From a virus (taxonomy: Duplodnaviria > Heunggongvirae > Uroviricota > Caudoviricetes): a stretch of 64,000 nucleotides of DNA. Each line of letters starts with the position of its first letter. The first letter of the stretch is position 1. The stretch lies in the IMG/VR virus record IMGVR_UViG_3300028585_000514, one strand, 5' to 3'. The notes beneath the pieces are model-generated. The model was given only the letters and a program-made list of their open reading frames with translations, had not been told where the DNA came from and did not search any database. Positions 9,205 through 44,626 of the stretch are shown here, piece after piece. Both the position numbers and the translations under genes were made by a program.

Positions 9205-9207
9205 GTA

Positions 9208-9480: not shown

Positions 9481-9499
9481 TTTATGTCGGCTTTTTGTT

Positions 9500-10293: not shown

Positions 10294-10322
10294 ATTATAA
10301 CCTATACTTTAAAGAAAGTACA
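10294..10322 (-). promoter_or_regulatory. promoter TGTACT-N17-TATAAT (P2)
   Basis: The spacer contains TTCTTTAAAG. Upstream of 9500..10156. Confidence 0.5.
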
Positions 10323-11849: not shown

Positions 11850-11858
11850 GATGATTCC

Positions 11859-13157: not shown

Positions 13158-13158
13158 A

Positions 13159-13422: not shown

Positions 13423-13460
13423 GATTGCCTATTATTTTTGTATGAGGTACTACGTGCTGC

Positions 13461-13727
13461 TTACGAAACCAGGATTTCTCGTTTCAGGTAGGACAAAATC
13501 ATCCAGTCCTGAAAGTAAACTTCCTTGCCGTTGAGTTGGCTGAGGAGGTGTTCTTCATGTTCTTCGTCTTCGGCAAATGCGATGATGAATTCGCGAAGCT
13601 CTTCACGATTCTTGTCCGTCACTTTGACTGGGAAATCGTTGCAGCTATTATTGCTTAACTCGTCGGATGCCTGCTCTAGAAGTTTTGCGAAGATTGCCTT
13701 TTCAGTGTCGTTAAAGCTTAGGTTCAT
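13461..13727 (-). CDS. hypothetical protein
   Basis: An 88-aa acidic ORF. Confidence 0.5.
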   Translation of the reverse strand: MNLSFNDTEKAIFAKLLEQASDELSNNSCNDFPVKVTDKNREELREFIIAFAEDEEHEEHLLSQLNGKEVYFQDWMILSYLKREILVS

Positions 13728-13943
13728 TTGTCAGTCGGGTTGTTAGCCCATTTGAAGATTTTGTATGCACCACGGAGAATGCTGAACACACCGATAACAA
13801 CAACACCGATTAGTCCCACCGTGAATCTCAATAGCACCGGACCAAATACGAGTAACGCAATGATCCCTAAGATAATCAATACTACGGTCATGTTCTCTTT
13901 CGAATGCCACCGACTCGTGAAAGTCGGTGGCGGCCTTTAGTGA

Positions 13944-15884
13944 TTACTTGTTCTTACGAACACGCATCCACCATTCAACCAGCAGGCGGGTCTGGCGCGG
14001 GGTGTAGCCCAGGTCGGACATGCGCTTGACGAAGGACTCGTGTGCTTCTTGATCCTTCTTCGAGCCTTTCGACGAGAAGCTGATCACCGGCAGGATTTCT
14101 TCAGTCGATGCGAACATCTTCTTCTCGATCACCTGGCGCATCTTCTCGAATGCATCCCATTTCGGCGACTTGCCTTTGTTCTCGGCCTTGTGGCGGAGGA
14201 CGAAGTTCACCAGCTCGTTACGGAAGTCTTTCGGGTTCACGATCCCGGCCGGCTTCTCGATCTTCTCGAGTTCGGCGTTCAGCGTCGAGCGATCGAACTG
14301 CTCTTGCGTGTCCGGGTCGCGGAAGTCTTCGTCACGAATCCAGTAGTCAGCGTACTGGAAGTAGCGGTCGAAGATGGTCTGGCCGTAGTCGGCGTACGAG
14401 TCCATGAACGCGATGCGAATCTGGTTCTCGACGAACTCGACGTACTTGTCGCCCAGGTGATGCTTGATCAGGTTGACGAGATGTTCTTCGCGATCGGATG
14501 GATACTGCTCCTTGACGATTTCCTGCTCGAGGACGTACATCAGGTGGATCGGGTTCGCGGCCAGTTCTTCCGAGTCGAAGTTGAACACCTTCGACAGGAT
14601 TTTGAAGGCGAAGCGAGTCGAGACGCCGTTCATGCCTTCGTTGACGCCGGCCAGGTCCTTGTATTCCTGCAGCGGCTTGGCACGCGGGTCGGTGTTCTTG
14701 ATGTTCTCGCCGTTGTAGACCGACATCTTCGAGAACAGGTTCGAGTTCTGTGGTTCGACCAGGCGGGACATGACAGCGAACTTGGCCAACATTTCCAGGG
14801 TTTCAGGAGCACATGGCGCCTTGGCCAGGGCCGAACCAGCCAGCATCTTCTTGTAGATCGACACTTCTTCGTCGACACGCAGGCAGTACGGCACCTTGAC
14901 GATGTAGACACGATCCAGGAAGGCTTCGTTGTTCTTGTTGTTGCGGAACGTTTTCCATTCCGATTCGTTCGAGTGTGCCAGGACGATGCCATCGAACGGG
15001 ATCGACGAAACGCTGTCGGTGCCGTTGAAGTTCTTTTCCTGCGTCGCGGTCAGCAGCGGATGCAGCATCTTGATCGGCGCCTTGAACATCTCGACGAAGT
15101 CCAGGATACCTTGGTTGGCGCGGCACAGGCCGCCGCTGTAGCTGTATGCGTATGGGTGGTCGGCGGCGTAGTCTTCCAGCTTGCGGATGTCGACCTTGCC
15201 GACGAGGGTCGAGATGTCTTGATTGTTCTCGTCGCCTGGTTCGACCTTGTCGATTGCCAGATGTTTCAGCACCGATGGGTATTGCTTGACGACGGTCAGT
15301 TGGGACAGGTCGCCGTTGACTTCTTTCAGGCGTTCAACCAGCCATGGCGAAGCGTTGACGCGCAGTGCGGTGCGTGGGATGCCGAACTCTTCTTCGAGTT
15401 GCTTAGCGTAGGTGGCCTTGTCGAATGCCGACAGTGGGTGGTCATGGATTGGCGAACCTTCGATCGAGTAGATCGGTTCGTGTTCCATCAGCTCTTTCAG
15501 CTTTTCAGCCAGGGACGATTTGCCGCCGCCGACTGGGCCGAGCAGGTACAGGATTTGTTTCGATTCTTCCAGGCCTTGGGCGCTGTGACGGAAGTACGAA
15601 ACGATCGATTCGACGGCGTCTTCCATGCCGAAGAATTCACGGAACGCGGGGTAGACCTTGATCACGCGATTCGAGAAGATACGACCGAGACGGCTGTCGC
15701 TCTTGGTGTCGATGGTTTCCGGTTCGCCGATTGCTTTCAGCATGCGCTGAGCAGGAGAAGCGTAGACGGACGGATCGTTCTTGCAACGTTCCAGGAAATC
15801 CGTCATGGACATCTTCTCGCTGGTGTTGCGGCGAGCATAATCGCTTGCGAATTGAGCAAGCATACCGGTCGGTGCGTTAGACAT
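13944..15884 (-). CDS. prkA: PrkA-family serine protein kinase (YeaG)
   Basis: The 646-aa product has a Walker A motif (LLGPVGGGKSSLAEKLK) and PrkA-family conservation throughout. Confidence 0.9.
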   Translation of the reverse strand: MSNAPTGMLAQFASDYARRNTSEKMSMTDFLERCKNDPSVYASPAQRMLKAIGEPETIDTKSDSRLGRIFSNRVIKVYPAFREFFGMEDAVESIVSYFRHSAQGLEESKQILYLLGPVGGGKSSLAEKLKELMEHEPIYSIEGSPIHDHPLSAFDKATYAKQLEEEFGIPRTALRVNASPWLVERLKEVNGDLSQLTVVKQYPSVLKHLAIDKVEPGDENNQDISTLVGKVDIRKLEDYAADHPYAYSYSGGLCRANQGILDFVEMFKAPIKMLHPLLTATQEKNFNGTDSVSSIPFDGIVLAHSNESEWKTFRNNKNNEAFLDRVYIVKVPYCLRVDEEVSIYKKMLAGSALAKAPCAPETLEMLAKFAVMSRLVEPQNSNLFSKMSVYNGENIKNTDPRAKPLQEYKDLAGVNEGMNGVSTRFAFKILSKVFNFDSEELAANPIHLMYVLEQEIVKEQYPSDREEHLVNLIKHHLGDKYVEFVENQIRIAFMDSYADYGQTIFDRYFQYADYWIRDEDFRDPDTQEQFDRSTLNAELEKIEKPAGIVNPKDFRNELVNFVLRHKAENKGKSPKWDAFEKMRQVIEKKMFASTEEILPVISFSSKGSKKDQEAHESFVKRMSDLGYTPRQTRLLVEWWMRVRKNK

Positions 15885-17477: not shown

Positions 17478-18572
17478 TTATTGCGACAGTGCTTCGACCC
17501 GTGCGTTGAAGATCGTTTCGGCAATCTTTGACTTGTCCGTGCACTGCTGCGCGATTCCACCAGCCGGCACCTGATACACCTTGCCCGCATCGCTTCGGAT
17601 CACGTTGAAGACTTCGGGCGGCCATTCCTCGCCGGTGTTGCTCGACATAATGAAGCTGGCAGCCGTCATGATCTGGTTGAAGCGTGGGATGCGACGGATG
17701 GCATCGCAACGCTGGAAGAACTGCACGCGTTCGATTGGCGTCAGCTTCTCGTAATTCGTGAAGGACTGCATGTTATTGTTCACGACCATCGAGACTTCTT
17801 GACAGTCCGAAGGGATAGTCCACTTGGCGTAGTCTTCCTTCATCTTGAAGCCACTGGCAATCGTCGCGAAACGAACTTCCAGGCTTGCATCGTTCTCGGC
17901 AGCCATTTGCAAGGCGCCCATCGATTTCGAGTAGCCGACGAAGAACTCTTTCAGAACGCGATCGGCATGAACACCATGCAGCGCGATGAACATGCGATCC
18001 GGCCGACGTTCCATCAACCCCTTCTTGAATTCAGCCCACACGCGTTCGGGCGTCACGTGATCGAGCTCACCCATACGAATCATTTCGGCTGCCATGTTCA
18101 AAGTCTCGCTGGCGATTTCGAAGGTGTCGTAACGAGCGAAGAAACGAGCGAGACGCAGGACGCGCACTGGGTCTTCACGGAAGGCGTCCGAAGTGTGTCG
18201 CAGAACTTTGCGCTCCAAGTCTTCCTGGCCGCCATAGGGATCGACGACGGTACCATCAGGAAGCATGGCCATGGCATTGATCGTCAAGTCACGACGAGCC
18301 AGATCATCTTCCAGTGTCACGTCTGGCGAGAACATGACTTCGAAGCCATGGTAGCCTGGACCGGTTTTCTTTTCCTGGCGAGCCAGTGCATACTCCTCGC
18401 CGGTGGTCGGGTGCAGGAACACCGGGAATTCTGCGCCGACTTGCTGAAAGCCGAGCGACACCATTTCCTCGATCGTTGACCCGACCACAACGTAATCGAT
18501 GTCTTGAGGGTCGAAGCCGAGCAGCTTGTCTCGCACTGCACCACCAACCATGTATACTTTCAACTGATCCAT
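17478..18572 (-). CDS. cca: tRNA nucleotidyltransferase (CCA-adding enzyme) with an HD domain
   Basis: Starts MDQLKVYMVGGAVRDKLLG, matching the Cca N-terminus. The start is the internal Met preceded by AAGGATAAT. Confidence 0.85.
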   Translation of the reverse strand: MDQLKVYMVGGAVRDKLLGFDPQDIDYVVVGSTIEEMVSLGFQQVGAEFPVFLHPTTGEEYALARQEKKTGPGYHGFEVMFSPDVTLEDDLARRDLTINAMAMLPDGTVVDPYGGQEDLERKVLRHTSDAFREDPVRVLRLARFFARYDTFEIASETLNMAAEMIRMGELDHVTPERVWAEFKKGLMERRPDRMFIALHGVHADRVLKEFFVGYSKSMGALQMAAENDASLEVRFATIASGFKMKEDYAKWTIPSDCQEVSMVVNNNMQSFTNYEKLTPIERVQFFQRCDAIRRIPRFNQIMTAASFIMSSNTGEEWPPEVFNVIRSDAGKVYQVPAGGIAQQCTDKSKIAETIFNARVEALSQ

Positions 18573-18579
18573 ATTATCC

Positions 18580-18792
18580 TTAGTCGTAAACGTGTTCTGG
18601 AATTCGGTGCCAGCAACCTGTAAAGGTTTCTGACACAATAGCACTGAATGATTTATTGAGGTTCTGATCGACATAGCCGGACGGGATTTTCTTGCGATTT
18701 AGCTCGCGAAGCCACACCCATCCAAATTCAATCGAGTAAACTGGATACCAGCAGAACCACTCATGCCATTCGGTTTTAGGTTTCTTTTTCAT
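18580..18792 (-). CDS. hypothetical Trp-rich protein
   Basis: A 70-aa ORF. Confidence 0.5.
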   Translation of the reverse strand: MKKKPKTEWHEWFCWYPVYSIEFGWVWLRELNRKKIPSGYVDQNLNKSFSAIVSETFTGCWHRIPEHVYD

Positions 18793-32453: not shown

Positions 32454-33038
32454 TTATTTGACGCTTCGTTCAAATGCTTCACGAATAGTGTCTGGGTCTT
32501 TTGCAGTCTTAGTGCAAAGGTACTTTGGATCAGGCATCACATGCACTCGCCCTAAATCAAGACGATCTGCATCATAGCAAACTTGGACTGTGATGTCTTC
32601 ATGTGTACCACCATGGCTATGGCCGCTCATAGCAGCACACAGGAGGTCAAAGCCCTCATCGTCAATGGTGAAATAGCTTCCATCAGCACGGAGCGCCCTG
32701 GCGTTCTCTACCGCTCTCTCGCCGTGCTCGATGTCGTGCCAGTCGTCAAAGCGTTCATGATCATGGAGGAAGGCAAATAGGGTGACAACATCAAGACGGG
32801 CGCCTTCAGCTCGAGCAAGCTTAGTACCATTAACGAGGACGCGAGCCCAGTGAGGAGCACCATGAATGCCCTTCCAATCTAGACGGAAATGTTGTTTGAG
32901 GTATTTGGTAAGTGCGGGAACGTTAATGGTTCCAGTAGAGGCGGGATTCATCATTGCTGCTTGACGATTGGCAGCAACTAGTCGGTTGTCCGACGGTTTA
33001 TCGTATTCGTATTCCATAGCAGAGAAAGGAAAGGCCAA
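32454..33038 (-). CDS. HD-domain phosphohydrolase-like protein
   Basis: H…HD motif: LFAFLHDHERFDD. Confidence 0.5.
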   Translation of the reverse strand: MAFPFSAMEYEYDKPSDNRLVAANRQAAMMNPASTGTINVPALTKYLKQHFRLDWKGIHGAPHWARVLVNGTKLARAEGARLDVVTLFAFLHDHERFDDWHDIEHGERAVENARALRADGSYFTIDDEGFDLLCAAMSGHSHGGTHEDITVQVCYDADRLDLGRVHVMPDPKYLCTKTAKDPDTIREAFERSVK

Positions 33039-33066
33039 TCCTTTCGAATTGGCCTTTGTTAGTTAA

Positions 33067-34617
33067 TTAAGGGCAGTACTGGTTGCAGAAGCAGTCATTT
33101 TTATCGCAGCCAAAGCATTGGCCGTCGCATGGGCCACTGCAATATTGACCGCATAGGCTGTCATATCGAATGTTTGGCCAAATGTCAACTGGGTACGAAC
33201 CCGGCTGAGTACCGGCTTGCGCGATATACAATGTCATTGGGAAAGTATTCACACCACCAGTATCATGCGTAACGGTGACGACATACTCGAGGACTTGAGT
33301 CTCGGCGTGTGCAGAGCCGACTAAGCGCCCAACGATCCAGCCATTTGAGAGGTATAGGCCTTCAGGCAGTTCACCATCTAGCTCAACCTTAGTGGTGTAC
33401 GGAGAAACAACCAGCATCCCGTGAGTGTCAGTATTCTCATATACCACACGATTTACTTTGATGGAACCAGAGACCATAGTTTCGGTCGCCTTGGTCACGA
33501 AGGTTGCGACTTGATTAACGCTAGCCGCATACTTCTCCGAAAGAACTAGCATGTTCTTCTTTAGCATACCGTACATTTCCAGCAAAGATTTGATGGACGC
33601 TGTGTAGCCAACGTTAGAGTACAAGATGTCACTATTGTACGCGAGGCATGCAGTCATGATGCCAGCGGCGATTGAAGTTCCTGAGACCGATCCTACGTTT
33701 CCATCGATCAACGCCGCGGTGATGTTCGTACCTGGAGCCCAGCCATCCAGTGCACCGTAGTTTGTTTCGCCAGCGGTGTTCGACGTTGCGCTGGTGTAGT
33801 TTGAGAAGTCAGCGGGTTCAAAGTTCTCGTCATATGCGCCAACAGTCAGCACATCGGACATCGATGCTGGAGTCACGTTCTGGATTGGGGTGCCATTGTT
33901 ACCAGCAGATACGACGACAAAAGCACCAGCGTTGATCAACTCTTGAATCTTCGATTCGATGTACTCGTTCTTGGTAATGGACCAAGAAATGTTCACGATT
34001 GGCACCGAACCAGCGCTAGCTAGAATGTCGGCGAGGATCGCATCGAACGCCTGAACTAGGTCCGAAGTCATTGTCGACTTAGAGCTGTCGAACACCTTCA
34101 CGACCTTGATGATTGAGTTAGAGATGCCAAGTGATTTGCCGGCTACCACGGAAGCAATCGAGGTGCCATGACCGTTGGTGTCTTCAAAGTCGCCATTGAA
34201 CGAGAATACATTCTGGATGTTCACTCCTTCAAATTCTGAATGAGCGGCGTTGATACCAGAGTCAACGATGTACACCGAAGTCTTGGCACCGCGCTTAACG
34301 AAGGATGAGTTGTCGGCGTTGAAGTCGATTTCGTAAGCTGAGGCAGTTTTCCACCAATCAGCATCGTGACTGAAGGATGAAACTTCACCAATAGACGCTG
34401 GGATGATTTCAACGGTGTTTAGCAGTTGTGCCGAAACGTTTTGGTCTTCGACGATAGTCTCGACGATTTCAGTTGCAGTCGGGGCGACAGCGCACTCAAC
34501 GATGTATACGCCGTTGAGCGCATTCATACTTGAGTAAGCAGCCACATTATTTTGGGACATCCATGAGTCGATTTCTTGTTGAGAAGCCGAATCTGTAAAG
34601 TCGATTAGAAATTTCAT
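33067..34617 (-). CDS. S8 subtilisin-like serine peptidase with an N-terminal propeptide-like domain and a Cys-rich C-terminal tail (module 1)
   Basis: Catalytic triad VYIVDSGI (Asp), NGHGTSIASV (His) and GTSIAAGIMTA (Ser). The C-terminus is …CGQYCSGPCDGQCFGCDKNDCFCNQYCP. Confidence 0.8.
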   Translation of the reverse strand: MKFLIDFTDSASQQEIDSWMSQNNVAAYSSMNALNGVYIVECAVAPTATEIVETIVEDQNVSAQLLNTVEIIPASIGEVSSFSHDADWWKTASAYEIDFNADNSSFVKRGAKTSVYIVDSGINAAHSEFEGVNIQNVFSFNGDFEDTNGHGTSIASVVAGKSLGISNSIIKVVKVFDSSKSTMTSDLVQAFDAILADILASAGSVPIVNISWSITKNEYIESKIQELINAGAFVVVSAGNNGTPIQNVTPASMSDVLTVGAYDENFEPADFSNYTSATSNTAGETNYGALDGWAPGTNITAALIDGNVGSVSGTSIAAGIMTACLAYNSDILYSNVGYTASIKSLLEMYGMLKKNMLVLSEKYAASVNQVATFVTKATETMVSGSIKVNRVVYENTDTHGMLVVSPYTTKVELDGELPEGLYLSNGWIVGRLVGSAHAETQVLEYVVTVTHDTGGVNTFPMTLYIAQAGTQPGSYPVDIWPNIRYDSLCGQYCSGPCDGQCFGCDKNDCFCNQYCP

Positions 34618-34892
34618 GTTGATGAGCTTTCGTTAGCAATGATTGTTATTTTTGTCCATTTGCCAACTGGGCACTCCGCTGATGACAAATAAGTTTTGGC
34701 GGCCATGAAGCAACCACATTTTTTACACGTTGATGTTACTTCAACAAAGTGTGGGCACGACTTGCAAATGTCATATCGTTCTTCACGAACAGAACTTTCA
34801 ACCTTCAGTTCGTCAAAGCGTTCGGCTGCTGCTTGCGCGCCAGCGGCAACAACGGCTTGAGTGCGCTCGGCGAGTTTTTTTAGAAAGGACAT
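34614..34892 (-). CDS. small Cys-rich (CxxC…CxxC) protein
   Basis: DICKSCPHF…CKKCGCF…AECP; GACATATTATTTTT lies upstream. It sits between the PP-loop gene and the peptidase gene of module 1. Confidence 0.55.
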   Translation of the reverse strand: MSFLKKLAERTQAVVAAGAQAAAERFDELKVESSVREERYDICKSCPHFVEVTSTCKKCGCFMAAKTYLSSAECPVGKWTKITIIANESSST

Positions 34893-34893
34893 A

Positions 34894-35766
34894 TTATTTT
34901 TCGTTAATTAAAAAAACTGGGGTGTAATGGTTTTTGAATTTGATGAGGTATTTATTCCTGAATAACTGATCAAAAACTCTTTTTGATGGTAGACTGGAAT
35001 GTGCTAATTTCATTTTGACTGTTACTCTATCACCAAACGCGTCGTAATAATCCTTTAGGCGTTCGAAGCCAGTAAGTTTATTGCTTTGCGGAATAATCGG
35101 GATACCGAGCATCTCATACCTTGCACATTTAAACAAATACGGATCATGGTGAAGTGAACTTAAACCCTCATCATTCCGATTCATCTGGATCACACTCGAT
35201 TTTGCGACAGCAGAATCGCTCATTAAGAAAAATGGAATGATGCTACTATTCGTGATGGTCGCGTATCGCTGTAGTCCAAAAATTGTATTGTCGATAGAGA
35301 GGCGACCCGGATATGGTATGTTACCGGAAAAGACTTTGGTGCCACCGGATACTAGTTCGGAGAATCTCATATGCGTACATAATTGCGGACTTGCGCATTG
35401 ATATATGGTCGCATAATGATCCAAATGATTTTCTAGGAAATCTAGAATATCAAAATCAAGATAGGATAATTCTATCCGTTCACGATCACAAAACAGTTTG
35501 CACTCTTCGATGTCATGATCGTTGAAGCCGTTGTATCGCACGTGAACAGCATTGAACGGGACGCCAGAAAGCTTCCATACGTATAGCATAGTTTGGCTAT
35601 CAATACCACCGGAAACAAATAGGGTGAATGGGGAAGGGTAGGTGTCAGAGATTCGATGTACATAAGCAACCAATGATTCTAAACAATCCAGTTTAGAATC
35701 ATTGGCAACATCAATCTCAAGATGAATTACTTTGTTTAAAGAAATGCCGTCGGCGGTTAGTTCCAT
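34894..35766 (-). CDS. PP-loop ATP pyrophosphatase superfamily protein (module 1)
   Basis: SGGxDS-type PP-loop: FVSGGIDSQ. Confidence 0.75.
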   Translation of the reverse strand: MELTADGISLNKVIHLEIDVANDSKLDCLESLVAYVHRISDTYPSPFTLFVSGGIDSQTMLYVWKLSGVPFNAVHVRYNGFNDHDIEECKLFCDRERIELSYLDFDILDFLENHLDHYATIYQCASPQLCTHMRFSELVSGGTKVFSGNIPYPGRLSIDNTIFGLQRYATITNSSIIPFFLMSDSAVAKSSVIQMNRNDEGLSSLHHDPYLFKCARYEMLGIPIIPQSNKLTGFERLKDYYDAFGDRVTVKMKLAHSSLPSKRVFDQLFRNKYLIKFKNHYTPVFLINEK

Positions 35767-35822
35767 AATGAACTCGTCAAGTGAATGATGTTAAGTATTT
35801 ATTCACATAACAAGTTCATTAC

Positions 35823-37373
35823 TTATCGACATTCCAAATTACTGCAAGAACAATCGTACTTCTCGCACTCACGGCAATAACCAGAGCAGCCACCGGAAGT
35901 GCAGCCGACGGTGTTCCAAGTACATACCACTGATAGGTCGATGCCGACTGGCGAATCGCCTGGCATCACAGATTCTGGAGCTAGGATTAGGTACAACGTA
36001 AACACGTGGACTTCACCAGTGTTAAATGTCGCGGTGACCTCATAGTCAAGAGTTTGTGTCTCTGCTGGTGGATTGGCCATGCGGCCAACGATCCAGCCAT
36101 TCGAAAGGCTTAGGCCTTCCGGCAACACGCCGCTCAGTTCGATCTTTTGGACCATCGAGTTGAAAGCCAGAAACGCGTAGACATCGGTATTGGCGTACAC
36201 GACGCGAGTGGCGGTGTAATGTCCCGATGTCAAGCCAGGCCCAGCTTTATGACTGAACGATGCAAGGATGTTGACACTGCCTTCATACTTGTCAGACAAT
36301 GTCAATAGGTTTGCCTTACGCAAAGTAATGTCAATCAGGAAGTTACTGAAGCTTGGAACAACTTGCGTTTCAGTGTACATCAGGTTACTATTGTAGGCAA
36401 GGCATGCAGACATAATGCCGGTCGCGATAGAAGTCCCAGCCGCCGTTCCTACGTTCCCGTCGATCGTCGCTACTTGGATGTTCGTACCCGGAGCCCAAGC
36501 GTCCAATGCACCGAAGTTGGTAGCATTTTGGGTGTTCTTGGTGGTGCTGGTATAGTTTGAGAATTCTGCCGGCTCGAAGTCTTCAGTATACGCGCCAATT
36601 GTGAATACCGCTTCCATCGAAGCCGGAGTAACTTGCTCGATTGGCACACCGCTATTACCAGCCGACGCAACCACCAAGGCACCAGCGTTGATTAGCGCTT
36701 GAATTTTTGATTCAAGATATTCGTCTTTAGGAATTGACCATGAAAGATTCACGATCGATGCTGAATCTTTATTTGCGATAATATCGTCAAGAATTGCGTC
36801 AAACGCCGCAACTAGATCGGAAGTCATCGTGGTCTTCGAACTATCAAAGACTTTCACGTTCTTGATTACTGAATTAGTGATACCGAGATTGACACCAGCG
36901 ATCACCGAAGCGATTGCGGTACCATGACCATTAGTATCGGAGAAGTCGCCGTTGAACGAGAACAAGTTCTGGACGTTGACGTCGGCAAATTCGGAGTGCG
37001 ATTGCATCACGCCAGAGTCGACCACATAAACGTTGGTGCGGGCGCCGCGCTTTTCATAAGTTGTTGAGGTGTCGGCGAATTCTAGTTCGCCGGCGCTTGC
37101 AGTCTTCCACCAGTCGGCATCGTGATCAAACGTAGCGGTAACTGTGGTAGCAGCAGGGATGACTTCAGCCGTATTTAGGAGTTTTGCTGAGACATTGCTG
37201 TCTTCGGTGATTTCATCCACTAGGTCCGTCGCTGTTGGAGCAACTACGCTTTCCACAACGAACACATTGGATCGAGTGGTTACACGCTTTGACGTGGTGA
37301 TGTTATTTGACGCCAGCCAGGAATCAATTTGTTCCTGAGTTGCTGTGTCTAGAAAATCGATGATATATTTCAT
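35823..37373 (-). CDS. S8 subtilisin-like peptidase, paralog 2, with a Cys-rich C-tail (module 2)
   Basis: VYVVDSGV / NGHGTAIASV / GTSIATGIMS. The tail is …CTWNTVGCTSGGCSGYCRECEKYDCSCSNLECR, and the N-terminus aligns with paralog 1 (MKYIIDFLDTATQEQIDSW…). Confidence 0.8.
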   Translation of the reverse strand: MKYIIDFLDTATQEQIDSWLASNNITTSKRVTTRSNVFVVESVVAPTATDLVDEITEDSNVSAKLLNTAEVIPAATTVTATFDHDADWWKTASAGELEFADTSTTYEKRGARTNVYVVDSGVMQSHSEFADVNVQNLFSFNGDFSDTNGHGTAIASVIAGVNLGITNSVIKNVKVFDSSKTTMTSDLVAAFDAILDDIIANKDSASIVNLSWSIPKDEYLESKIQALINAGALVVASAGNSGVPIEQVTPASMEAVFTIGAYTEDFEPAEFSNYTSTTKNTQNATNFGALDAWAPGTNIQVATIDGNVGTAAGTSIATGIMSACLAYNSNLMYTETQVVPSFSNFLIDITLRKANLLTLSDKYEGSVNILASFSHKAGPGLTSGHYTATRVVYANTDVYAFLAFNSMVQKIELSGVLPEGLSLSNGWIVGRMANPPAETQTLDYEVTATFNTGEVHVFTLYLILAPESVMPGDSPVGIDLSVVCTWNTVGCTSGGCSGYCRECEKYDCSCSNLECR

Positions 37374-37384
37374 TGATGGAGTTC

Positions 37385-38260
37385 TTAATTAGAAGATTTT
37401 GTTTGATCGGTTACTACTAACCGAGGTGAGTAATCATTGTTCAAACGTACTTGATATTTATTCCTAAACAATTGGTCAAATACGCGTTTCGATCTAGTGT
37501 TCATTTGCTGCCACTTCATCTTAGTTGTTACTCGCTCAGGATAGTGATCGTAGTAACACTTGACCATTTCGAATCCATTAAGCTTGGCGTATTGAGGTAT
37601 GATCGGAATCCCAATCATTTGATAATGCGCGCATTTAGCAACGTAGTTCGATCCGTCTGGAGTTTTAGGCAGGCGCTCGGAACATATGATTGCTGCTTTA
37701 GCTACCTTTTCGTTTTGGAGAAGGAAAAACGGGATCACTGAATATCCGCTAAGAGCCGCGTACCTATACAATCCAAAAATGGTATTATCGAGAGACAACG
37801 TTTTGGTCGGTAGATTTCCTGAGAACAATTTAGTCCCAGATGGAACCAATTCGGACATGGCCATATGAGTGCAAAGCTGTGGGCTAGAGCACTCATATTT
37901 CATTGCGTAATCTTCTAACCGATTTTCTAAGAAGTCGATAAGGTCAAAATCAATAATGCGTATTGAAACATTTTGCTGCTCACAAAATTGAATGATCTCG
38001 TTTCGGTCATGAAGATTAAAGCCTTCGTAATTTACATGAACGACATCAAATGGAACATTGGCGAGCTTCCAAACATAAACCATCGCTTGGCTGTCAATGC
38101 CACCAGATACAAACAACGTATGAGGAGCTGGCGTAGTAGCTGCGATTTCGCGAGCGTATTTTACCAACTCCTCTAAGCAATCAAGTTTGCTATCTACTTC
38201 ACTATCAATCGTTATTTTAACCGTTCGATTTAGATTTAATCCATCGTCTGATAGGTTCAT
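37385..38260 (-). CDS. PP-loop ATP pyrophosphatase, paralog 2 (module 2)
   Basis: FVSGGIDSQAMVYVW. It aligns with paralog 1 along its whole length. Confidence 0.75.
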   Translation of the reverse strand: MNLSDDGLNLNRTVKITIDSEVDSKLDCLEELVKYAREIAATTPAPHTLFVSGGIDSQAMVYVWKLANVPFDVVHVNYEGFNLHDRNEIIQFCEQQNVSIRIIDFDLIDFLENRLEDYAMKYECSSPQLCTHMAMSELVPSGTKLFSGNLPTKTLSLDNTIFGLYRYAALSGYSVIPFFLLQNEKVAKAAIICSERLPKTPDGSNYVAKCAHYQMIGIPIIPQYAKLNGFEMVKCYYDHYPERVTTKMKWQQMNTRSKRVFDQLFRNKYQVRLNNDYSPRLVVTDQTKSSN

Positions 38261-38302
38261 AGTGGTTTAAGAAATAGTGTTATGCACTATTTATTCACCG
38301 CT

Positions 38303-38335
38303 GCAAATCAAAATTCCAGCACACTCGCTGAATGT
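38303..38335 (-). terminator. hairpin CCAGCACA…TGTGCTGG followed by AATTTTGATTT on the minus strand
   Basis: Downstream of the vWA gene and upstream of PP-loop paralog 2. Confidence 0.45.
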
Positions 38336-38348
38336 GCTGGAACATGGT

Positions 38349-39647
38349 TTACTGCTTGATGATCAGCGTTGCTTTCTTCTGACGCTTAGCTTTTGCGATT
38401 TCTGCATTGGCTTCGGTGAGAGTGTTAACGGTCATCACTGCGATACCATCCTTCTTACGAACGAGGGTGATCTTGCCGGTTGGAGCAGCGTGACCAGGGA
38501 ATGGCCATGCTGGAGCAACTGGAGCGACAGGGATAACCGGTGCAACTGGTGCTGCGACCTTGGCGGCTTGTGCAGCAGCTTGTGGCACATACGAAGGACC
38601 TTCGGTGAAGGCTTGACCAACACGTGGCCAGTACATCACTTGAGTGCCAGCGACCAGATGGCGGTTGACTGAGGTCGATTGGACGAAGACGTCGAAGTCA
38701 CCGAACTTACCAGGGTGAACACGAGCATTGCCAGTGGTTGGTAGACCGATCATTTGACGAGCAGCAGGACCGTAGTACACTGCACCAGATTTCTTGTCAC
38801 GGATGACAATCATCTTCGAGTCTTGAATCTTCGATTCAGTCTTGGACAGCTGGTAGAATGCAGCGCCTTTCAGCATTGCCGACTTCAGGTGGCCTTCGAC
38901 GAATGGACGGATTTCCATCTTGTCCTGGTGGCTTGCCACATAGAACATCGACACTTCAGCCGAGATGTCTTTCAGGTTTGCTTTGACATCGGCGACGGTC
39001 ACATTGGACAGGTCAGCGAAGAAGGTCGAGGACGACTTCTTACCAGCAGCACGATCGCTGAAGTAGTTGTTGAATGCAGCAGTGGTTGCAGCGGTAGCGA
39101 CTTCCACACCACGAACGGTTTGATCCCATTCTTGGATATTGCCAGCTGGGATACCAAGACGTTCTAGTTCGCGCGAATTGCCACGTGGAACACGGAACAC
39201 GAAGGTCCAACGATCGGTAGCTTGCAGCTTACGCATTTCGTTAGCCAGCGAGGAGCCACTCCAACGCTTCGACGAATTCTCGCCGCCGTCAGTGGTGACG
39301 AGGACCAGGAAGGAAACTTCTGGGTCGTTGTAATCCGGGGTTGCTTTGAAGATGTCGATCAGTTCACCGACGGAGTCGAACAGGGGAGTTGAATTGCCAT
39401 TTGCGACATAGTTGTCGATTGGGCGAAGTGCGGTCACCGCGTTGTTGACGATTTGACGTTTGACGATGGTACCGCGACCGCTATCACGAATGCCGCATTG
39501 CACGACGCTGACGATAGTGTCTGAGAAGTTCTTGATTGATGCAGTTTTGATTGCGTCGATCGACGTGTTGTAGTCGCGAGCTGCTGCTTGGGTGAGGCCG
39601 CCCATTGAAGCTGAGTGGTCGTTTGAAAAGCCGATATATTGTTTCAT
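38349..39647 (-). CDS. von Willebrand factor A (vWA/MIDAS) domain protein
   Basis: GFSNDHSASMGG matches the DxSxS MIDAS motif, and TDGGEN follows. Start MKQYIG with a GGAG ribosome-binding site. It lies directly upstream of the peptidase/PP-loop modules. Confidence 0.7.
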   Translation of the reverse strand: MKQYIGFSNDHSASMGGLTQAAARDYNTSIDAIKTASIKNFSDTIVSVVQCGIRDSGRGTIVKRQIVNNAVTALRPIDNYVANGNSTPLFDSVGELIDIFKATPDYNDPEVSFLVLVTTDGGENSSKRWSGSSLANEMRKLQATDRWTFVFRVPRGNSRELERLGIPAGNIQEWDQTVRGVEVATAATTAAFNNYFSDRAAGKKSSSTFFADLSNVTVADVKANLKDISAEVSMFYVASHQDKMEIRPFVEGHLKSAMLKGAAFYQLSKTESKIQDSKMIVIRDKKSGAVYYGPAARQMIGLPTTGNARVHPGKFGDFDVFVQSTSVNRHLVAGTQVMYWPRVGQAFTEGPSYVPQAAAQAAKVAAPVAPVIPVAPVAPAWPFPGHAAPTGKITLVRKKDGIAVMTVNTLTEANAEIAKAKRQKKATLIIKQ

Positions 39648-39881
39648 AAAATTCTCCGAAAGTATTATTTTTGTAAAGGGGTATTGCAAAGATGAAAATC
39701 AAACTATGCGAAAAGTGATCAGCACCAACAAGGCGTTGATGTAGATATTTATAGTAGGATTTTGAAGCGGATTTCGTGAATCGCTGGAATTTTTCGTGGT
39801 GAACGAAAGGAGATGTTGCTCCAACGATGAATAGAATTATATCGCGATCGTGGCCGCGCCCACGCTAGAAATGATCGCAAA

Positions 39882-39922: not shown

Positions 39923-41125
39923 TTAGTATGCCAGCTTTTCGAAGGCCGTGTCGCGTACCATTTTCAGGACCTTGCCGTATGAGAGACCATAGGCACCGAT
40001 GCACTGCGTATAGTTGTTTGGTGATTGGCCATCGAGGCCAATGAAGTCAAACGTGTCGATGATGGTCTCGAGTGCCTTGGGCCCGTTGTCGGACATATAG
40101 AACACCTTGCTAGCGAAGTACATTCGAGCACGATTTGGCATGATGCCGTGCTTGTACATTTCCGTGATCAGGAAGTCGAGGTCCTTGTCGCCAGTGTTTG
40201 CAGCCTTGACCGCCTGAATGTCCAGGGTTGAGCCAGGGAGCGGCGATTGCGAAATGAGATTGTCATATGCTGCATGATGCATGAGCGCCTTGGCCCACTG
40301 CAGCGGCGTATTTTCCAAGGTCATACGAGCCTTACGAGCCTGGATGATCGAGATTTCACGGAACGCCATTTGGCGAAGGATCGCGATACCAGGGCTACCT
40401 TCACCGAGGTCTTTGAATTCCTTGGCAACCGAGTAGAAGATGTTGGCTGGGTCGAGGATGCCGTTGTGCAGGGCGACGGACATGTTGGTTTGGCCATCGT
40501 GGCGATCACGCGTTGCATGGTACGTTTCAACTGTTGCGTGAATGCGACGCAGAACAGCTTGACGATCCATGAGCGGATGAGGAGTTTTGACTATAGGATA
40601 GCCAGTACCCAGGCCGACATAGCGCAGCAAGTTGAATGGCTTAATGTCGCGCGACAGACGATGTGGGATGAACGTGCTGATTGCCTTGACATGCGATTGC
40701 CAACGAGACTTGGCGGTCATTTTGAAGCACTCGTGATCGACCAGGTCCGAGTCGATAATGGTGACGGGCGCCTCGATTTTGTGGAGGTTAATCGAGTGCC
40801 ACATGTGGAACAGCGGCTGATCAATGATGACTTGATCGAAGCCATGCTCCTTGATAAGAGCATTCATATGGCTGACTGGGTCTTGCTCACGGAAGACGTG
40901 AAGTTTGCACTTGGTCATGTCGAACAGGACACGGTCGAACTCGTTGATCGAGTAGTAGAAGGCATCCAGATTTTCCTGGCTGCAACGGTTATAGATGTCA
41001 CGTTCGCGTTGACCTGCGAAATGGTATGGCGAATAGTACACGAAGCAGCATTCGCCACCAAGCAGGGAAGTGAGACGTGAATCCATTCGGAAGGAATGGG
41101 TCATCCAGACAAGAGTCCGTGCCAT
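39923..41125 (-). CDS. photolyase/cryptochrome-family protein
   Basis: The C-terminal GIMPNRARMYFASKVF resembles the photolyase FAD-domain motif (…HNRxRMIVASFL…). It is about 400 aa long with an alpha/beta N-terminal domain. Confidence 0.55.
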   Translation of the reverse strand: MARTLVWMTHSFRMDSRLTSLLGGECCFVYYSPYHFAGQRERDIYNRCSQENLDAFYYSINEFDRVLFDMTKCKLHVFREQDPVSHMNALIKEHGFDQVIIDQPLFHMWHSINLHKIEAPVTIIDSDLVDHECFKMTAKSRWQSHVKAISTFIPHRLSRDIKPFNLLRYVGLGTGYPIVKTPHPLMDRQAVLRRIHATVETYHATRDRHDGQTNMSVALHNGILDPANIFYSVAKEFKDLGEGSPGIAILRQMAFREISIIQARKARMTLENTPLQWAKALMHHAAYDNLISQSPLPGSTLDIQAVKAANTGDKDLDFLITEMYKHGIMPNRARMYFASKVFYMSDNGPKALETIIDTFDFIGLDGQSPNNYTQCIGAYGLSYGKVLKMVRDTAFEKLAY

Positions 41126-42353: not shown

Positions 42354-42432
42354 TGGTACCCGTGGACGGATTCGAACCGACACATGAACTGCGTTTGAGG
42401 CAGCCGCCTTCTTCCAATTGGGCTACACGGGC
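42354..42432 (-). tRNA. tRNA, anticodon read as CAA, but type I (short variable arm); CCA encoded; identity uncertain
   Basis: Hand-folded: acceptor GCCCGTG/CACGGGT, anticodon stem GCTGC/GCAGT with loop CTCAAAC, T-arm GTCGG-TTCGAAT-CCGTC (one mismatch). Confidence 0.5.
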
Positions 42433-42445
42433 ATTGTAAAGTATT

Positions 42446-42541
42446 TGGCGGAAGATGTGGGATTCGAACCCACGAGGCGTCTTTTGGACACCTTCACTCC
42501 TTAGCAGGGAGGACCAATCAACCAGGCTCTGGCAATCTTCC
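42446..42541 (-). tRNA. tRNA-Ser(GCT), type II, CCA encoded
   Basis: Acceptor GGAAGAT/ATCTTCC, anticodon loop CTGCTAA, long variable arm, T-arm GTGGG-TTCGAAT-CCCAC. Confidence 0.75.
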
Positions 42542-42549
42542 GTAATGTT

Positions 42550-42642
42550 TGGCGGAGAGCGAGGGACTCGAACCCCCACACCCATTGCTGGGCCTTCTGC
42601 TTTCGAGGCAGCTGCCGCTATGCCGATTCGGCTAAGCTCTCC
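42550..42642 (-). tRNA. tRNA-Ser(CGA), type II, CCA encoded
   Basis: Acceptor GGAGAGC/GCTCTCC, anticodon loop CTCGAAA, long variable arm. Confidence 0.75.
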
Positions 42643-42736
42643 GTATATGACATCAGGTACCGTCGCAAAGCGCCCATTTAAGGGGTGACCATGGCTGCGG
42701 ATGTGTACACTATCCATCGTTTGCTTACTGATGTCA

Positions 42737-42816
42737 TGGAGTCCCCGGCCGGAATCGAACCGAAAAAGCATCTCTTGTTTTGCAGACAAGCGGATGAACC
42801 ATTCTCCCACAGGGAC
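42737..42816 (-). tRNA. tRNA-Cys(GCA), CCA encoded
   Basis: Acceptor GTCCCTG/CGGGGAC (one G-U pair), anticodon stem CTTGT/ACAAG with loop CTGCAAA. Confidence 0.6.
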
Positions 42817-42830
42817 TTAGATTGTATTGC

Positions 42831-42925
42831 TGGCGGAGACGGAGGGACTCGAACCCCCACACCCACTTCCGTGAGCCCTCTGTTTTCAAGACAGCTGCCG
42901 CTATGCCGATTCGGCTAACGTCTCC
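42831..42925 (-). tRNA. tRNA-Ser(TGA), type II, CCA encoded
   Basis: A paralog of 42550..42642. Anticodon loop CTTGAAA. Confidence 0.75.
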
Positions 42926-42931
42926 GTAATT

Positions 42932-43099
42932 TTAGTCGCACTCGTCGACTAGTTCGAAATCGCCTGCTTCGAGGTTGTCGATTGCTTTGTTGATTGCTGC
43001 TTCAACTTGATCAATCGTGGCGTTTGGGTTGGTACCAGGGAAAATACTGCGAACAGTAACGCCACGTGGTTTCAATCGTTCATTTAATTCGGTCAACAT
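42932..43099 (-). CDS. hypothetical small protein between tRNAs (55 aa)
   Basis: MLTELNERLKPRGVTV…. The upstream part of the track ORF overlaps a tRNA. Confidence 0.4.
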   Translation of the reverse strand: MLTELNERLKPRGVTVRSIFPGTNPNATIDQVEAAINKAIDNLEAGDFELVDECD

Positions 43100-43117
43100 A
43101 AAGTTCTCCATAAAGTT

Positions 43118-43208
43118 TGGCGGTGATGGTGGGATTCGAACCCACGGACCCATTTCCGAATCGCTACCTTTCCAGGGTAGTACCTTAAACCAACTCAGCC
43201 ACATCACC
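43118..43208 (-). tRNA. tRNA-Ser(GGA), type II, CCA encoded
   Basis: Acceptor GGTGATG/CATCACC, anticodon stem CTACC/GGTAG with loop CTGGAAA. Confidence 0.75.
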
Positions 43209-43240
43209 GTAGGATGCGGAGTTAACCGCATCGTTGTATC

Positions 43241-43597
43241 TTAGGTCGTATGATCACCGATCGACACAGGCAATTTCAAAGTCGATTGGAGAGTCATTAG
43301 AACTTTTAGGACTTCTTCTTTCGAAGCAGTCAAGCGCAATTCCGTGCCGCTTGGGTTTGAGCTCGTGAACATATCTTTCACGGCACTGATGGCTTTGTCA
43401 CCAACAGCGTCAAAAATATTTCCGATGTCATCAACCCAAAGACGCAGTTCGATTTGGTCGCCTTTGGTAACAATCATGCCGACCGCTTGATCACGGAAAA
43501 TGACATGGTTATCCAACGACTTCGAAAGTCTCGCGGAAAGTTGTTCTTCGGTTTTCAAACCTGCTTCCATCAGCATTAGTTCTTTGATTAGGTTCAT
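43241..43597 (-). CDS. hypothetical protein
   Basis: A 118-aa ORF. Confidence 0.55.
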   Translation of the reverse strand: MNLIKELMLMEAGLKTEEQLSARLSKSLDNHVIFRDQAVGMIVTKGDQIELRLWVDDIGNIFDAVGDKAISAVKDMFTSSNPSGTELRLTASKEEVLKVLMTLQSTLKLPVSIGDHTT

Positions 43598-43647
43598 TGC
43601 AATTCCTATGTTATGTTATTGGATGAATTATTTATAGCATCATAACA

Positions 43648-44025
43648 TCACATGACAGATTCAGGATCAAGTTGCAATTTTCTGCCGATCGCTTGTTGCA
43701 TCACGACTAGAACTTGTGCCATCTCTTGTTTGGAACCTGAAATCACTCGACCATCTTTTGTTATCTGGTTATCGCGTGAATTTTCAAATTCCTTAGCCAT
43801 CTTGTTCCACACTGCAGCACCAAACGTAGCACGAATGTCGCGGTCGTAACCGTGAAGTTCTAGTGCATTGCCTCTGGTGAAGAAAGCAGCGATGACAACA
43901 TCAGTCTTCGCTTCGTGGACCATGATTAGGCCATTGCGTTTCGAAAGAATGTCTTTCTCAATATCAGCTCGCGTTAGCAAGTCTGTTGAAGGAGTAAACT
44001 CCATAATCAAATCACTTAGTCTCAT
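43648..44025 (-). CDS. hypothetical protein (start MRLSDLIME)
   Basis: The internal Met is preceded by AAGATTTATATG. Confidence 0.5.
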   Translation of the reverse strand: MRLSDLIMEFTPSTDLLTRADIEKDILSKRNGLIMVHEAKTDVVIAAFFTRGNALELHGYDRDIRATFGAAVWNKMAKEFENSRDNQITKDGRVISGSKQEMAQVLVVMQQAIGRKLQLDPESVM

Positions 44026-44061
44026 ATAAATCTTCCGGTTGGTTGTGGAAGTATTTATCGC

Positions 44062-44136
44062 TGGCATCCCGCACGAGAGTCGAACTCGTCTTTATAGAGT
44101 GAAAGTCTATTGTCCTAACCGATAGACGAACGGGAT
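44062..44136 (-). tRNA. tRNA-Glu(TTC), CCA encoded
   Basis: Acceptor ATCCCGT/GCGGGAT, anticodon stem ATAGA/TCTAT with loop CTTTCAC, T-arm ACGAG-TTCGACT-CTCGT. Confidence 0.7.
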
Positions 44137-44142
44137 AATGTT

Positions 44143-44247
44143 TGGTGTAGCATCCGGGAATCGAACCGCGGTAGGTCTAAGGAATCTGCAGCTCCCATGG
44201 ACATCGACATCACTGGCCGCGCTGGCTCCATACCAGCCTAATACTAC
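44143..44247 (-). tRNA. 105-nt tRNA-like gene with a ~30-nt internal insertion and a bulged T-stem; CCA encoded
   Basis: Acceptor GTAGTAT/ATGCTAC pairs, and the D-arm GGCT-GGTATGG-AGCC is canonical. The T-arm CCGCGG-TTCGATT-CCCGG has one bulged C. I could not fold the anticodon region. Confidence 0.4.
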
Positions 44248-44248
44248 A

Positions 44249-44332
44249 TGGTGGGTTGTGTAGGAGTCGAACCTACTGACCAGAGGTCACGGGGTTACAG
44301 CCCGCTGCAGTCACCAATGCTGCTCACAACCC
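44249..44332 (-). tRNA. tRNA-Tyr(GTA), long variable arm, CCA encoded
   Basis: Acceptor GGGTTGT/ACAACCC, anticodon stem GCGGG/CCCGT with loop CTGTAAC. Confidence 0.7.
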
Positions 44333-44344
44333 ATATTGTTGTTT

Positions 44345-44426
44345 TGGTGTACATGGTTGGAATCGAACCAACTCAGCCGAAGCCACTGCTTTACAGGCAG
44401 CTTATCTCTCCAAGGATTGCACGTAC
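44345..44426 (-). tRNA. tRNA with a GTA anticodon (Tyr-like), long variable arm, atypical D-arm
   Basis: Acceptor GTACGTG/CATGTAC, anticodon loop CTGTAAA, T-arm GTTGG-TTCGATT-CCAAC. Confidence 0.55.
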
Positions 44427-44429
44427 ATA

Positions 44430-44521
44430 TGGTGGACGCGGTAGGACTCGAACCTACACAGTCTTATTTGGTTGCGGGAGGGTTACAGCCTCTTGAGCTC
44501 TAGCCAGTGCTCAGCACGTCC
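44430..44521 (-). tRNA. tRNA with a GTA anticodon (Tyr-like), long variable arm
   Basis: Acceptor GGACGTG/CGCGTCC, D-arm GAGC/GCTC, anticodon loop CTGTAAC, T-arm TAGG-TTCGAGT-CCTA. Confidence 0.6.
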
Positions 44522-44532
44522 ATATTATTGTT

Positions 44533-44616
44533 TGGCATCGCATGGGGGACTCGAACCCCAGTCGTGAGACGTCACCTTGAAAGGGTGATGACGGTTACCG
44601 GCCGTCAACATGCGAT
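44533..44616 (-). tRNA. tRNA with a TTC anticodon but a long variable arm (identity uncertain)
   Basis: Acceptor ATCGCAT/ATGCGAT, D-stem TGAC/GTCA, anticodon stem TCACC/GGTGA with loop CTTTCAA. Confidence 0.5.
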
Positions 44617-44626
44617 GTAGTTGCGT

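Follow-up and report, generated by a model that had tools for sequence, protein, structure and literature searches.

The 64,000-nucleotide stretch considered here (the window) belongs to IMG/VR virus record IMGVR_UViG_3300028585_000514, a 348,873-bp metagenomic contig, and is an accessory region of a jumbo phage. It carries three copies of a module, each made up of a subtilase of the S8 family (S8), of the proteinase K type, and a PP-loop enzyme (PP) of about 290 amino acids. The two genes were found next to each other in more than 70 distinct phage loci, and the arrangement is therefore not due to chance. The PP enzyme is predicted to adopt the fold of the synthetase domain of asparagine synthetase B, and most of the subtilases end in a Cys-rich tail. 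The reading favoured here, held tentatively and at somewhat less than even confidence, is that the subtilase/PP pair is the basis of a phage maturation cassette resembling those of peptides that are made by ribosomes and altered after translation (RiPPs).

The linkage of the two genes was established with loci retrieved from IMG/VR in two ways, either with a PP profile (55 loci) or with an S8 profile (47 loci with a full-length family match). A subtilase gene was adjacent on the same strand in 48 of the 55 loci fetched with the PP profile; five of the remaining seven end at a contig edge within 0.5 kb, and the other two are the weakest PP matches. All 47 full-length family subtilases fetched with the S8 profile had an adjacent PP gene. 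The order of the genes, which often include one for a small protein of family DUF6171, was DUF-S8-PP, DUF-PP-S8, S8-PP-DUF, S8-DUF-PP or PP-S8, and the flanking genes were unrelated between loci. More than one module per genome is not confined to the window, as locus L005 has two subtilases with one PP, and two modules were seen on contigs of 113 kb and 343 kb. An initial annotation of this DNA had proposed looking for co-occurrence of S8 and PP with a von Willebrand factor A (vWA) gene; the S8 and PP genes kept strict company across the phage loci, but the vWA gene did not stay with them.

Two tandem copies with the same gene order on the minus strand had been described in the initial annotation, and every open reading frame (ORF) of that description was recovered, including the 92-aa CxxC protein within copy 1 (here copy A, with copy B beside it). 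The count itself had to be raised to three, as a hidden Markov model (HMM) built from homologues found another module, copy C, at 49296-51838. The block from PP-B to S8-A has genes that overlap or lie at most 56 bp apart and is bounded at both ends by terminator-like hairpins, and the PP-C stop codon overlaps the S8-C start by one base. Copies B and C have no DUF6171 gene of their own. The A and B copies are 57% identical in their subtilases and 53% identical in their PP enzymes, and each has its own orthologous pair on another phage contig of 30 kb: S8-A and PP-A match P0070 (83%) and P0006 (81%), and S8-B and PP-B match P0068 (68%) and P0003 (64%). The duplication is therefore old, and the enzymes stay with their cognate partners. 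The best relatives of PP-C are 42-47% identical to it.

Several folds had been put forward for the PP enzymes at the outset, and structure prediction came down on the side of an asparagine synthetase or beta-lactam synthetase rather than a TilS-, TtcA- or QueC-like protein. The AlphaFold2 model, made from a 54-sequence alignment, had a predicted local distance difference test score (pLDDT) of 95.7, and its predicted fold is that of the synthetase domain of asparagine synthetase B (AsnB), beta-lactam synthetase and carbapenam synthetase, with fold-match scores of 13.9 for human ASNS, 12.5 for beta-lactam synthetase, 12.1 for carbapenam synthetase and 10.9 for TsnB9. An SGGxDS PP-loop in an adenine-nucleotide alpha-hydrolase fold, followed by a C-terminal helical subdomain of the AsnB type, is thus predicted, as in asparagine-synthetase-like (AS-like) enzymes. 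No N-terminal glutaminase or glutaminase-like domain of the N-terminal nucleophile class is present in the PP enzyme, which at 290 aa has only about 50 residues ahead of the PP-loop. By sequence, Pfam gave sub-threshold QueC and PP-loop matches over about 60 residues for the window proteins, the Asn_synthase profile matched weakly in only 2 of 54 family members, and no PDB chain matched the PP profile at E < 0.1. Because no PDB chain or Pfam family matches by sequence, PP counts as a PP-loop family that has not been classified. Its members, all stand-alone proteins of about 280-330 aa, made up 240 clusters (50% identity) at E <= 1e-30 in an exhaustive profile search and 808 at the looser limit of E <= 1e-10, and the family has 1,409 representatives.

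The marks of two better-known PP-loop families were looked for in the PP enzyme and not found, namely those of QueC (about 220 aa, a C-terminal zinc-binding Cys cluster and a queD/queE/folE context) and of TilS (C-terminal domains that bind tRNA, placed after a PP-loop domain). A role for PP as a TilS/QueC/TtcA-type modifier of tRNA or nucleotides was rejected on its fold and on its strict linkage to S8.

The partner is a subtilase by both sequence and predicted structure. Peptidase_S8 (Pfam PF00082) matched S8-A and S8-B at about 4e-18, with a cut-off of 21.8 bits. The Asp/His/Ser triad and the propeptide-like N-terminal domain that had been read from the letters both held up: Asp119, His150 and Ser315, together with the oxyanion-hole Asn240, are invariant across 83 homologues, and the AlphaFold2 model of S8-B (pLDDT 87.7) runs from an N-terminal prodomain through the catalytic domain and a helical linker to a beta-sandwich. 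Foldseek aligned the model at E 1e-17 to 1e-19 with structures of the proteinase K kind, and over about 400 columns with pro-subtilisin and PCSK9, in keeping with a subtilisin alpha/beta fold that has an N-terminal propeptide. The beta-sandwich, which has an LPxGLxxxxG motif, precedes the tail, and between the two lies a conserved linear motif, P-x-DDP-x-L-x-ITL. NCBIfam gave weak PatA/PatG and QhpE matches, far under the family cut-offs, and PHROGs only the generic 'protease' family phrog_3677. The subtilases are not prohead proteases; no prohead family was matched, and the neighbouring genes are tRNAs, metabolic genes and small ORFs.

The tails themselves are short, with 28-35 aa and 6-8 Cys in the window. 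Cys-rich tails had been part of the initial annotation, with 8-10 Cys each, and 8 were counted in each of S8-A and S8-B. Among the 120 homologues listed, 104 have at least 6 Cys within the last 45 residues. The tails share the framework C-x-C-xGx-C-x-C-x[DN]-C-(loop)-CxC-x-C-x, and all else in them is variable. A Lys lies no more than 12 residues before the final CxC in 95 of 97 tails and is the single Lys of the tail in 86 of the 97, and the chain ends within 3 residues of the last Cys in 102 of 105. The tail was left unmodelled in the S8-B monomer run (pLDDT about 37). Since the copies are multiple and divergent and the tail is hypervariable, diversifying selection on the tail's binding target is suggested. 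A scan of all loci for separate precursor genes, in the form of small Cys-rich ORFs, gave only antisense artefacts and the Bdellovibrio precursor described below.

The 92-aa protein of copy A belongs to DUF6171 (Pfam PF19668, 4.6e-8, 33.8 bits against a cut-off of 27) and also matches phrog_13558. The family alignment has an N-terminal helix followed by the pattern R..C..C......T..C..CGC....KT......CP..KW, which looks like a zinc ribbon. DUF6171 was present only where the subtilase carries the Cys region. In about 23 loci with tail-less subtilases, PP was present and DUF6171 was absent; three loci with tailed subtilases also had no DUF6171. PP and S8 are the core of the module, since the tail-less loci keep both without DUF6171, and the Cys tail and DUF6171 are a coupled elaboration of that core. 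The tail-less subtilases have a conserved C-terminus of their own that ends in Lys: the largest subgroup ends ...SISFFAYWxxx[IL]K, and others end ...KN, ...KL or ...KF. The feature conserved beyond the Cys scaffold is possibly the C-terminus with a nearby Lys. In the tail-less subgroup L040-L060, PP and S8 are in every case separated by a metallophosphoesterase-like gene that runs on the other strand (e.g., L058 6950-7730, minus strand), and conserved genes resembling 2-oxoglutarate (2OG)-Fe(II) oxygenases flank the pair.

Some family members carry additional domains at or near the tail. A Hint domain is appended after the tail and a poly-Gly linker in P0171 and P0184, Pfam recognised Hint/PT-HINT in the L028 subtilase, and a mini-intein-like insert lies within the Cys tail of P0142 and P0161. 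The residue that follows this insert is Ile or Leu, a non-nucleophile, and canonical splicing is not expected. In P0183, P0103 and the L101 subtilase, a Peptidase_S74 chaperone domain comes directly after the CxC, and a trimeric C-terminus is a possibility for these variants. All these variants keep a definite end of the chain directly behind the Cys region. The idea that a C-terminal Hint domain serves as a thioester-based stand-in for PP was rejected, as PP and DUF6171 are still adjacent in every one of the variants, those with Hint and S74 domains included. None of the three window copies has a Hint or S74 domain.

A third subtilase subgroup, of about 500 aa and with a 6-Cys tail, had no AsnB-like PP in 8 of 9 loci. 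A QueC-like PP-loop gene of about 190 aa lies directly upstream instead, with a weak DUF6171 relative nearby. The same QueC-like family was also found beside the S8/PP/DUF6171 triad in about ten other loci; in L013 (4301-4930) and L087 (8729-9346), the QueC-like gene comes immediately after a second DUF6171-like gene. Genes for GNAT and 2OG-Fe(II) oxygenase proteins lie within 5 kb in about half of the loci, at variable positions. The GNAT proteins, of about 150 aa, were seen within 5 kb of the subtilase on either strand in about half of L005-L135 (e.g., L127 6318-6782 and L045 8145-8585), and one is encoded near the Bdellovibrio PP homologue; none is in the window.

The module was met only in uncultured phages. 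A tblastn search of 50,697 GenBank phage records with the PP family and all three subtilase subgroups found none of them, only generic subtilases. The PP profile matched at two loci in 185,579 species genomes, both in metagenome-assembled genomes (MAGs) of Bdellovibrionales. One of these, L065, is a contig of 1,154 bp with no usable gene context. On the other, a 428-kb Bdellovibrio contig (L064, MAG CBIHNI010000001.1), the PP homologue (E 7e-43) lies between genes for a YcaO protein of the SagD family and a SagB dehydrogenase. Just upstream are a leader-binding protein of the thiazole/oxazole-modified microcin (TOMM) type and, 3.3 kb from the PP homologue, an 80-aa precursor-like ORF ending GCGTCGVPTCKACGSCWSSDSCS. 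The putative core of this ORF is rich in Cys, Gly and Ser, has one Lys and ends one residue past its last Cys, as the phage tails do. The cluster (4350-13267) also encodes an HTTM/MauE-like membrane protein and a sulfatase-like protein, and as a RiPP cluster of the TOMM or linear azol(in)e-containing peptide (LAP) type it is apparently undescribed. Neither the window nor the phage loci examined had the set of YcaO, leader-binding protein and SagB, and they are accordingly not TOMM/LAP clusters.

That the arrangement matched no described module had been stated in the initial annotation, and the searches bore this out, with no defence system recognised and no homologue among GenBank phages. PADLOC returned a generic subtilase model (5e-12) and matches at E 8e-4 or weaker, none of them to a system-specific model. 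No mention of DUF6171 was found in the literature, and a keyword search for the combination of S8, PP and DUF6171 gave nothing relevant. The S8/PP/DUF6171 cassette is an architecture not described before.

In the maturation cassette favoured here, a carboxylate in the C-terminal segment of the cognate subtilase would be adenylated by PP at the expense of ATP; this would most likely be the C-terminal alpha-carboxylate or, alternatively, an acidic side chain. The activated carboxylate would then be passed to a nitrogen, either that of ammonia, which would give a C-terminal amide (and with a second step a nitrile), or the epsilon-amine of the conserved Lys, which would give a lactam. DUF6171 may bind or present the Cys-rich tail, perhaps via zinc, in the way of a RiPP recognition element. 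The subtilase would provide the proteolytic step, cutting off its prodomain and freeing the matured tail at the P-x-DDP-x-L-x-ITL linker; it might otherwise be directed at a target in the host, and the matured tail would then serve for regulation or targeting.

Precedents for the proposed chemistry come from AS-like enzymes that act on ribosomal peptides. Lasso cyclases form a lactam, TsrC and ScdTA a C-terminal amide, and PesC, in the nitrilobacillins, a nitrile from the C-terminal carboxylate of a peptide; QueC/ToyM and ArtA/NitB are other ATP-dependent nitrile formers (PMC13060819). Like TsrC, ScdTA, PesC and the lasso cyclases, the window PP enzyme is encoded beside a putative peptide substrate and a protease, and a homologue of it sits in a RiPP cluster. 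It differs from them in having no N-terminal glutaminase-type domain and no detectable sequence similarity past the PP-loop, in a putative substrate that is the C-terminus of a 516-aa enzyme rather than a short leader-core peptide, and in its occurrence in phages rather than in bacterial biosynthetic clusters.

The lasso peptide triad consists of a B1 recognition element (a PqqD-like winged helix), a B2 cysteine protease of the transglutaminase fold and the C cyclase. The phage cassette resembles it in its three parts: a protease is combined with a small protein of about 80 aa for binding and with an AS-fold enzyme that depends on ATP and would form amides. However, its protease is a serine subtilase of family S8, its small protein is DUF6171 and not PqqD-like, and it is not a lasso system: no separate short or Cys-rich precursor ORF was present in any phage locus, and no evidence was found for a ring-forming N-terminal Asp or Glu. 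In the borosins (OphMA), too, a large enzyme is fused at its C-terminus to a variable core-like peptide; in the cassette, by contrast, the fused enzyme is the protease itself, and no methyltransferase partner was seen in the phage loci. Leader removal or processing of Cys-rich ribosomal peptides is usually the work of S8 proteases. The cassette shares the use of such a protease with LanP, the S8 domains of PatA/PatG and QhpE, and the NCBIfam matches noted above were to PatA/PatG and QhpE, although at scores far below the cut-offs and without a YcaO or radical SAM partner in the phage loci. The members that end in a self-cleaving Hint or an S74 domain, which would leave a defined C-terminus, recall the Hedgehog/Hog-Hint architectures, the pretoxin-HINT architectures of polymorphic toxins and the S74 tail spikes; they differ from the pretoxin-HINT proteins in that no toxin domain follows the Hint and in that PP and DUF6171 stay adjacent.

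Several lines of support for a maturation cassette can be named. They include the precedents of AS-like enzymes at work on ribosomal peptides, the obligate linkage of S8 and PP, and the confinement of DUF6171 to tailed subtilases. The features of the tail (its Cys framework, Lys, chain end and linker, and its failure to be modelled by AlphaFold2) are typical of a core peptide. Where a self-cleaving Hint or S74 domain is present, it follows the tail at once, and a defined free C-terminus is thus restored. The QueC-like PP of the third subgroup points to an independent recruitment of the same chemistry, QueC being of the class that forms amides and nitriles. The PP homologue inside the Bdellovibrio TOMM cluster, near a Cys-rich precursor, is a further point in favour. 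Peptide maturation through activation of a carboxylate by PP had been one of the possibilities raised initially, and its direction is favoured by the fold, the RiPP precedents and the TOMM relative.

Other observations weigh against this reading, above all the persistent pairing of PP with subtilases that have no tail. About 23 loci combine PP with a subtilase that has neither the Cys tail nor a DUF6171 partner, and the Cys framework itself is therefore not the universal substrate. The RiPP-cluster context is a single MAG locus, and a metagenome scan with the Bdellovibrio protein gave no further bacterial RiPP contexts. Outside the PP-loop, the sequence similarity of PP to Asn_synthase is negligible. 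The window encodes no classical RiPP enzyme, be it a YcaO, a radical SAM or another, and no cultured phage was found to carry the module. The Peptidase_S74 domains within the family suggest that the C-terminus is structural and oligomeric, and not a peptide that is set free.

The main rival is a structural one, in which the C-terminus forms a trimeric, metal-bound tip. The subtilase would be a virion-associated protease, or one that degrades the host envelope, its C-terminus would be a tip stabilised by metal or disulfides with CxC in the role of HxH, and PP and DUF6171 would be assembly or cross-linking factors, for example for an inter-chain Lys isopeptide. This was judged unlikely, with real points on its side. 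HxH metal sites occur in the tips of T4 fibres, and Peptidase_S74 is an intramolecular chaperone that drives the trimerisation of phage tail spikes and fibres; in some family members this domain follows the Cys region at once. The beta-sandwich with LPxGLxxxxG ahead of the tail would suit such a structure, the failure of the AlphaFold2 monomer on the tail is what an intertwined oligomer would give, and the divergent copies per genome recall the diversity of receptor-binding proteins. The modules, however, are sited away from structural clusters, in accessory regions whose other genes are tRNAs, NAD-salvage genes and small ORFs; a signal peptide and fibre-like repeats are absent; S74 is found on a minority of members only; and the proteinase-K-type prodomain argues for a soluble zymogen. 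A structural tip also leaves unexplained why even the tail-less subtilases have an obligate partner of a carboxylate-amidating type.

Improbable as well, in the estimate made here, is an effector of host takeover or counter-defence, in which the subtilase would degrade host proteins (of defence or of the envelope), the tail would target or inhibit, and PP would modify a separate substrate such as a cleavage product or a host protein. Restriction of the module to phages and to accessory regions, diversification into multiple copies with a hypervariable tail, the pretoxin-type Hint domains of some members, the GNAT and 2OG-oxygenase genes that recur nearby and the retention of PP with tail-less subtilases would all fit an effector. 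It has no identifiable target, however, and PADLOC and NCBIfam show generic subtilase similarity only. The proposal also speaks to what the cassette is for and not to how it works, and such a role is compatible with either the maturation or the structural-tip mechanism.

Two further explanations leave the subtilase aside, and both have very little to commend them. It is most improbable that PP is a TilS-, QueC- or TtcA-like modifier for the tRNA cluster or for DNA modification with the subtilase as an unrelated neighbour: the weak Pfam and NCBIfam matches to QueC, PP-loop and TilS families cover roughly the first 60 residues, around SGGIDS, and the 17 tRNA genes of the window would give it a setting, but PP lacks a C-terminal region of the tRNA-binding kind or with the zinc motif of QueC, no queD, queE, folE or dpdA is nearby, and adjacency to S8 is near perfect despite permuted gene orders and unrelated flanks. 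Least credible of all is an auxiliary metabolic gene for an ammonia-dependent asparagine synthetase that raises the Asn supply, which would accord with the match of the PP fold to the AsnB synthetase domain and with the annotation of some phage proteins as asparagine synthase (distant structural matches), but is countered by the absence of a glutaminase domain and of a significant Asn_synthase sequence match, by three divergent copies that each have a subtilase, and by the strict linkage to S8 and DUF6171.

The features of the window are collected in Table 1, together with those of four other loci.

Table 1. Modules, boundaries and adjoining vWA-like gene in the window, and selected genes of tail-less and third-subgroup loci elsewhere
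Feature	Locus	Position	Strand	Remarks
Terminator-like hairpin, 12-bp stem	window	33030..33057	-	directly 3' of the S8-A stop codon; downstream boundary of the unit
S8-A, 516 aa	window	33067..34617	-	paralogue of S8-B
S8-A Cys-rich tail CGQYCSGPCDGQCFGCDKNDCFCNQYCP	window	33067..33153	-	8 Cys, one Lys
DUF6171 protein, zinc-ribbon-like, 92 aa	window	34614..34892	-	Pfam PF19668; 4-base overlap with the S8-A start
PP-A, 290 aa, SGGIDSQ	window	34894..35766	-	paralogue of PP-B
S8-B, 516 aa, proteinase-K-type subtilase	window	35823..37373	-	prodomain, catalytic domain, beta-sandwich, linker motif, Cys tail
S8-B Cys-rich C-terminal tail CTWNTVGCTSGGCSGYCRECEKYDCSCSNLECR	window	35823..35924	-	8 Cys, one Lys
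PP-B, 291 aa, SGGIDSQ	window	37385..38260	-	predicted AsnB-type synthetase fold, without glutaminase domain
Terminator-like hairpin, 14-bp stem	window	38313..38343	-	separates PP-B from the vWA-like gene; upstream boundary of the unit
vWA-like protein, 446 aa, DxSxS motif	window	38349-39689	-	phrog_26613 match
S8-C, 542 aa, third subtilase, 6-Cys tail CRSNGCRDDCEYYLGGYSTCDYSGQTKDGYGCWCT	window	49296..50924	-	Peptidase_S8 3.5e-19
PP-C, 304 aa, third PP-loop paralogue	window	50924..51838	-	other clade than A/B; HMM E 1e-104
PP of tail-less pair	L058	5944-6945
S8 of tail-less pair	L058	7829-9658		chain end ...SISFFAYWARNIK
QueC-like PP-loop protein, family of about 190-230 aa	L120	4149-4724		upstream of third-subgroup subtilase
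QueC-like PP-loop protein, same family	L128	4077-4721		upstream of third-subgroup subtilase
QueC-like PP-loop protein, same family	L129	4162-4728		upstream of third-subgroup subtilase

The vWA-like gene had been placed by the initial annotation immediately upstream of the two copies. Its ORF is real, although the end at 39647 given for it proved to be an internal ATG of a longer frame, and the protein is 54% identical to one of Caulobacter phage Cr30. As a module component it was rejected, as it is missing from module neighbourhoods elsewhere and is separated from PP-B by the hairpin at 38343-38313. The gene that adjoins it, for a 400-aa protein (39923-41125, minus strand) with weak similarity to photolyases, is not conserved beside the module elsewhere either.

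No DNA relative of the window was found among GenBank phages by megablast. The 17 tRNA genes are concentrated at 42354-44973. Between this cluster and the third module lies a gene for an R2K-clade ATP-grasp protein (47064-47849, minus strand; Pfam R2K_3 5e-17), which is possibly another peptide-ligating enzyme. Beyond the third module, a 136-aa ORF (51891-52301, minus strand) has an N-terminus like a signal peptide and a middle rich in Lys and Pro, and it ends in a sorting signal that resembles PEP-CTERM, VPEPSSIAMIGIGLAGLVVARRKR; this signal hints at a host with an exosortase. Genes for NAMPT and NAD synthetase, which belong to NAD salvage, and for a CCA-adding tRNA nucleotidyltransferase lie at 693-2255, 62111-62914 and 17478-18674, and a triad of PrkA (646 aa), DUF444/YeaH (463 aa) and SpoVR (508 aa) lies at 10323-15884 on the minus strand, each with a Pfam match at E <= 1e-155.

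Even if the chemistry were another, the two enzymes are paired almost without exception, a single near-invariant Lys stands in an otherwise hypervariable Cys scaffold, and a genome can have as many as three copies; these features mark a conserved function that has no cultured phage representative. It is possible, if doubtful, that the cassette is a new class, namely the first widespread phage-native RiPP-like pathway, with a core peptide fused to its own subtilase and served by a glutaminase-less AS-fold enzyme (or a QueC-like one in one lineage), which would put in place a C-terminal amide or nitrile or a Lys lactam, and by a DUF6171 recognition partner. Large aquatic phages would then diversify the product, either a self-regulating protease or a peptide that is Cys-knotted and hypervariable, in several copies per genome. 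Should the maturation reading be right, DUF6171 and the unclassified PP-loop family, with its at least 240 clusters at 50% identity, would each gain a first function, and a compact, easily expressed three-gene system would be at hand for tests of whether a C-terminal amide, nitrile or lactam can be installed on a folded protein. Large uncultured phages would then carry a peptide and protein tailoring chemistry of their own, drawn from the enzyme classes of bacterial natural products and set in a new architecture, as a phage-specific branch of RiPP-type biosynthesis.

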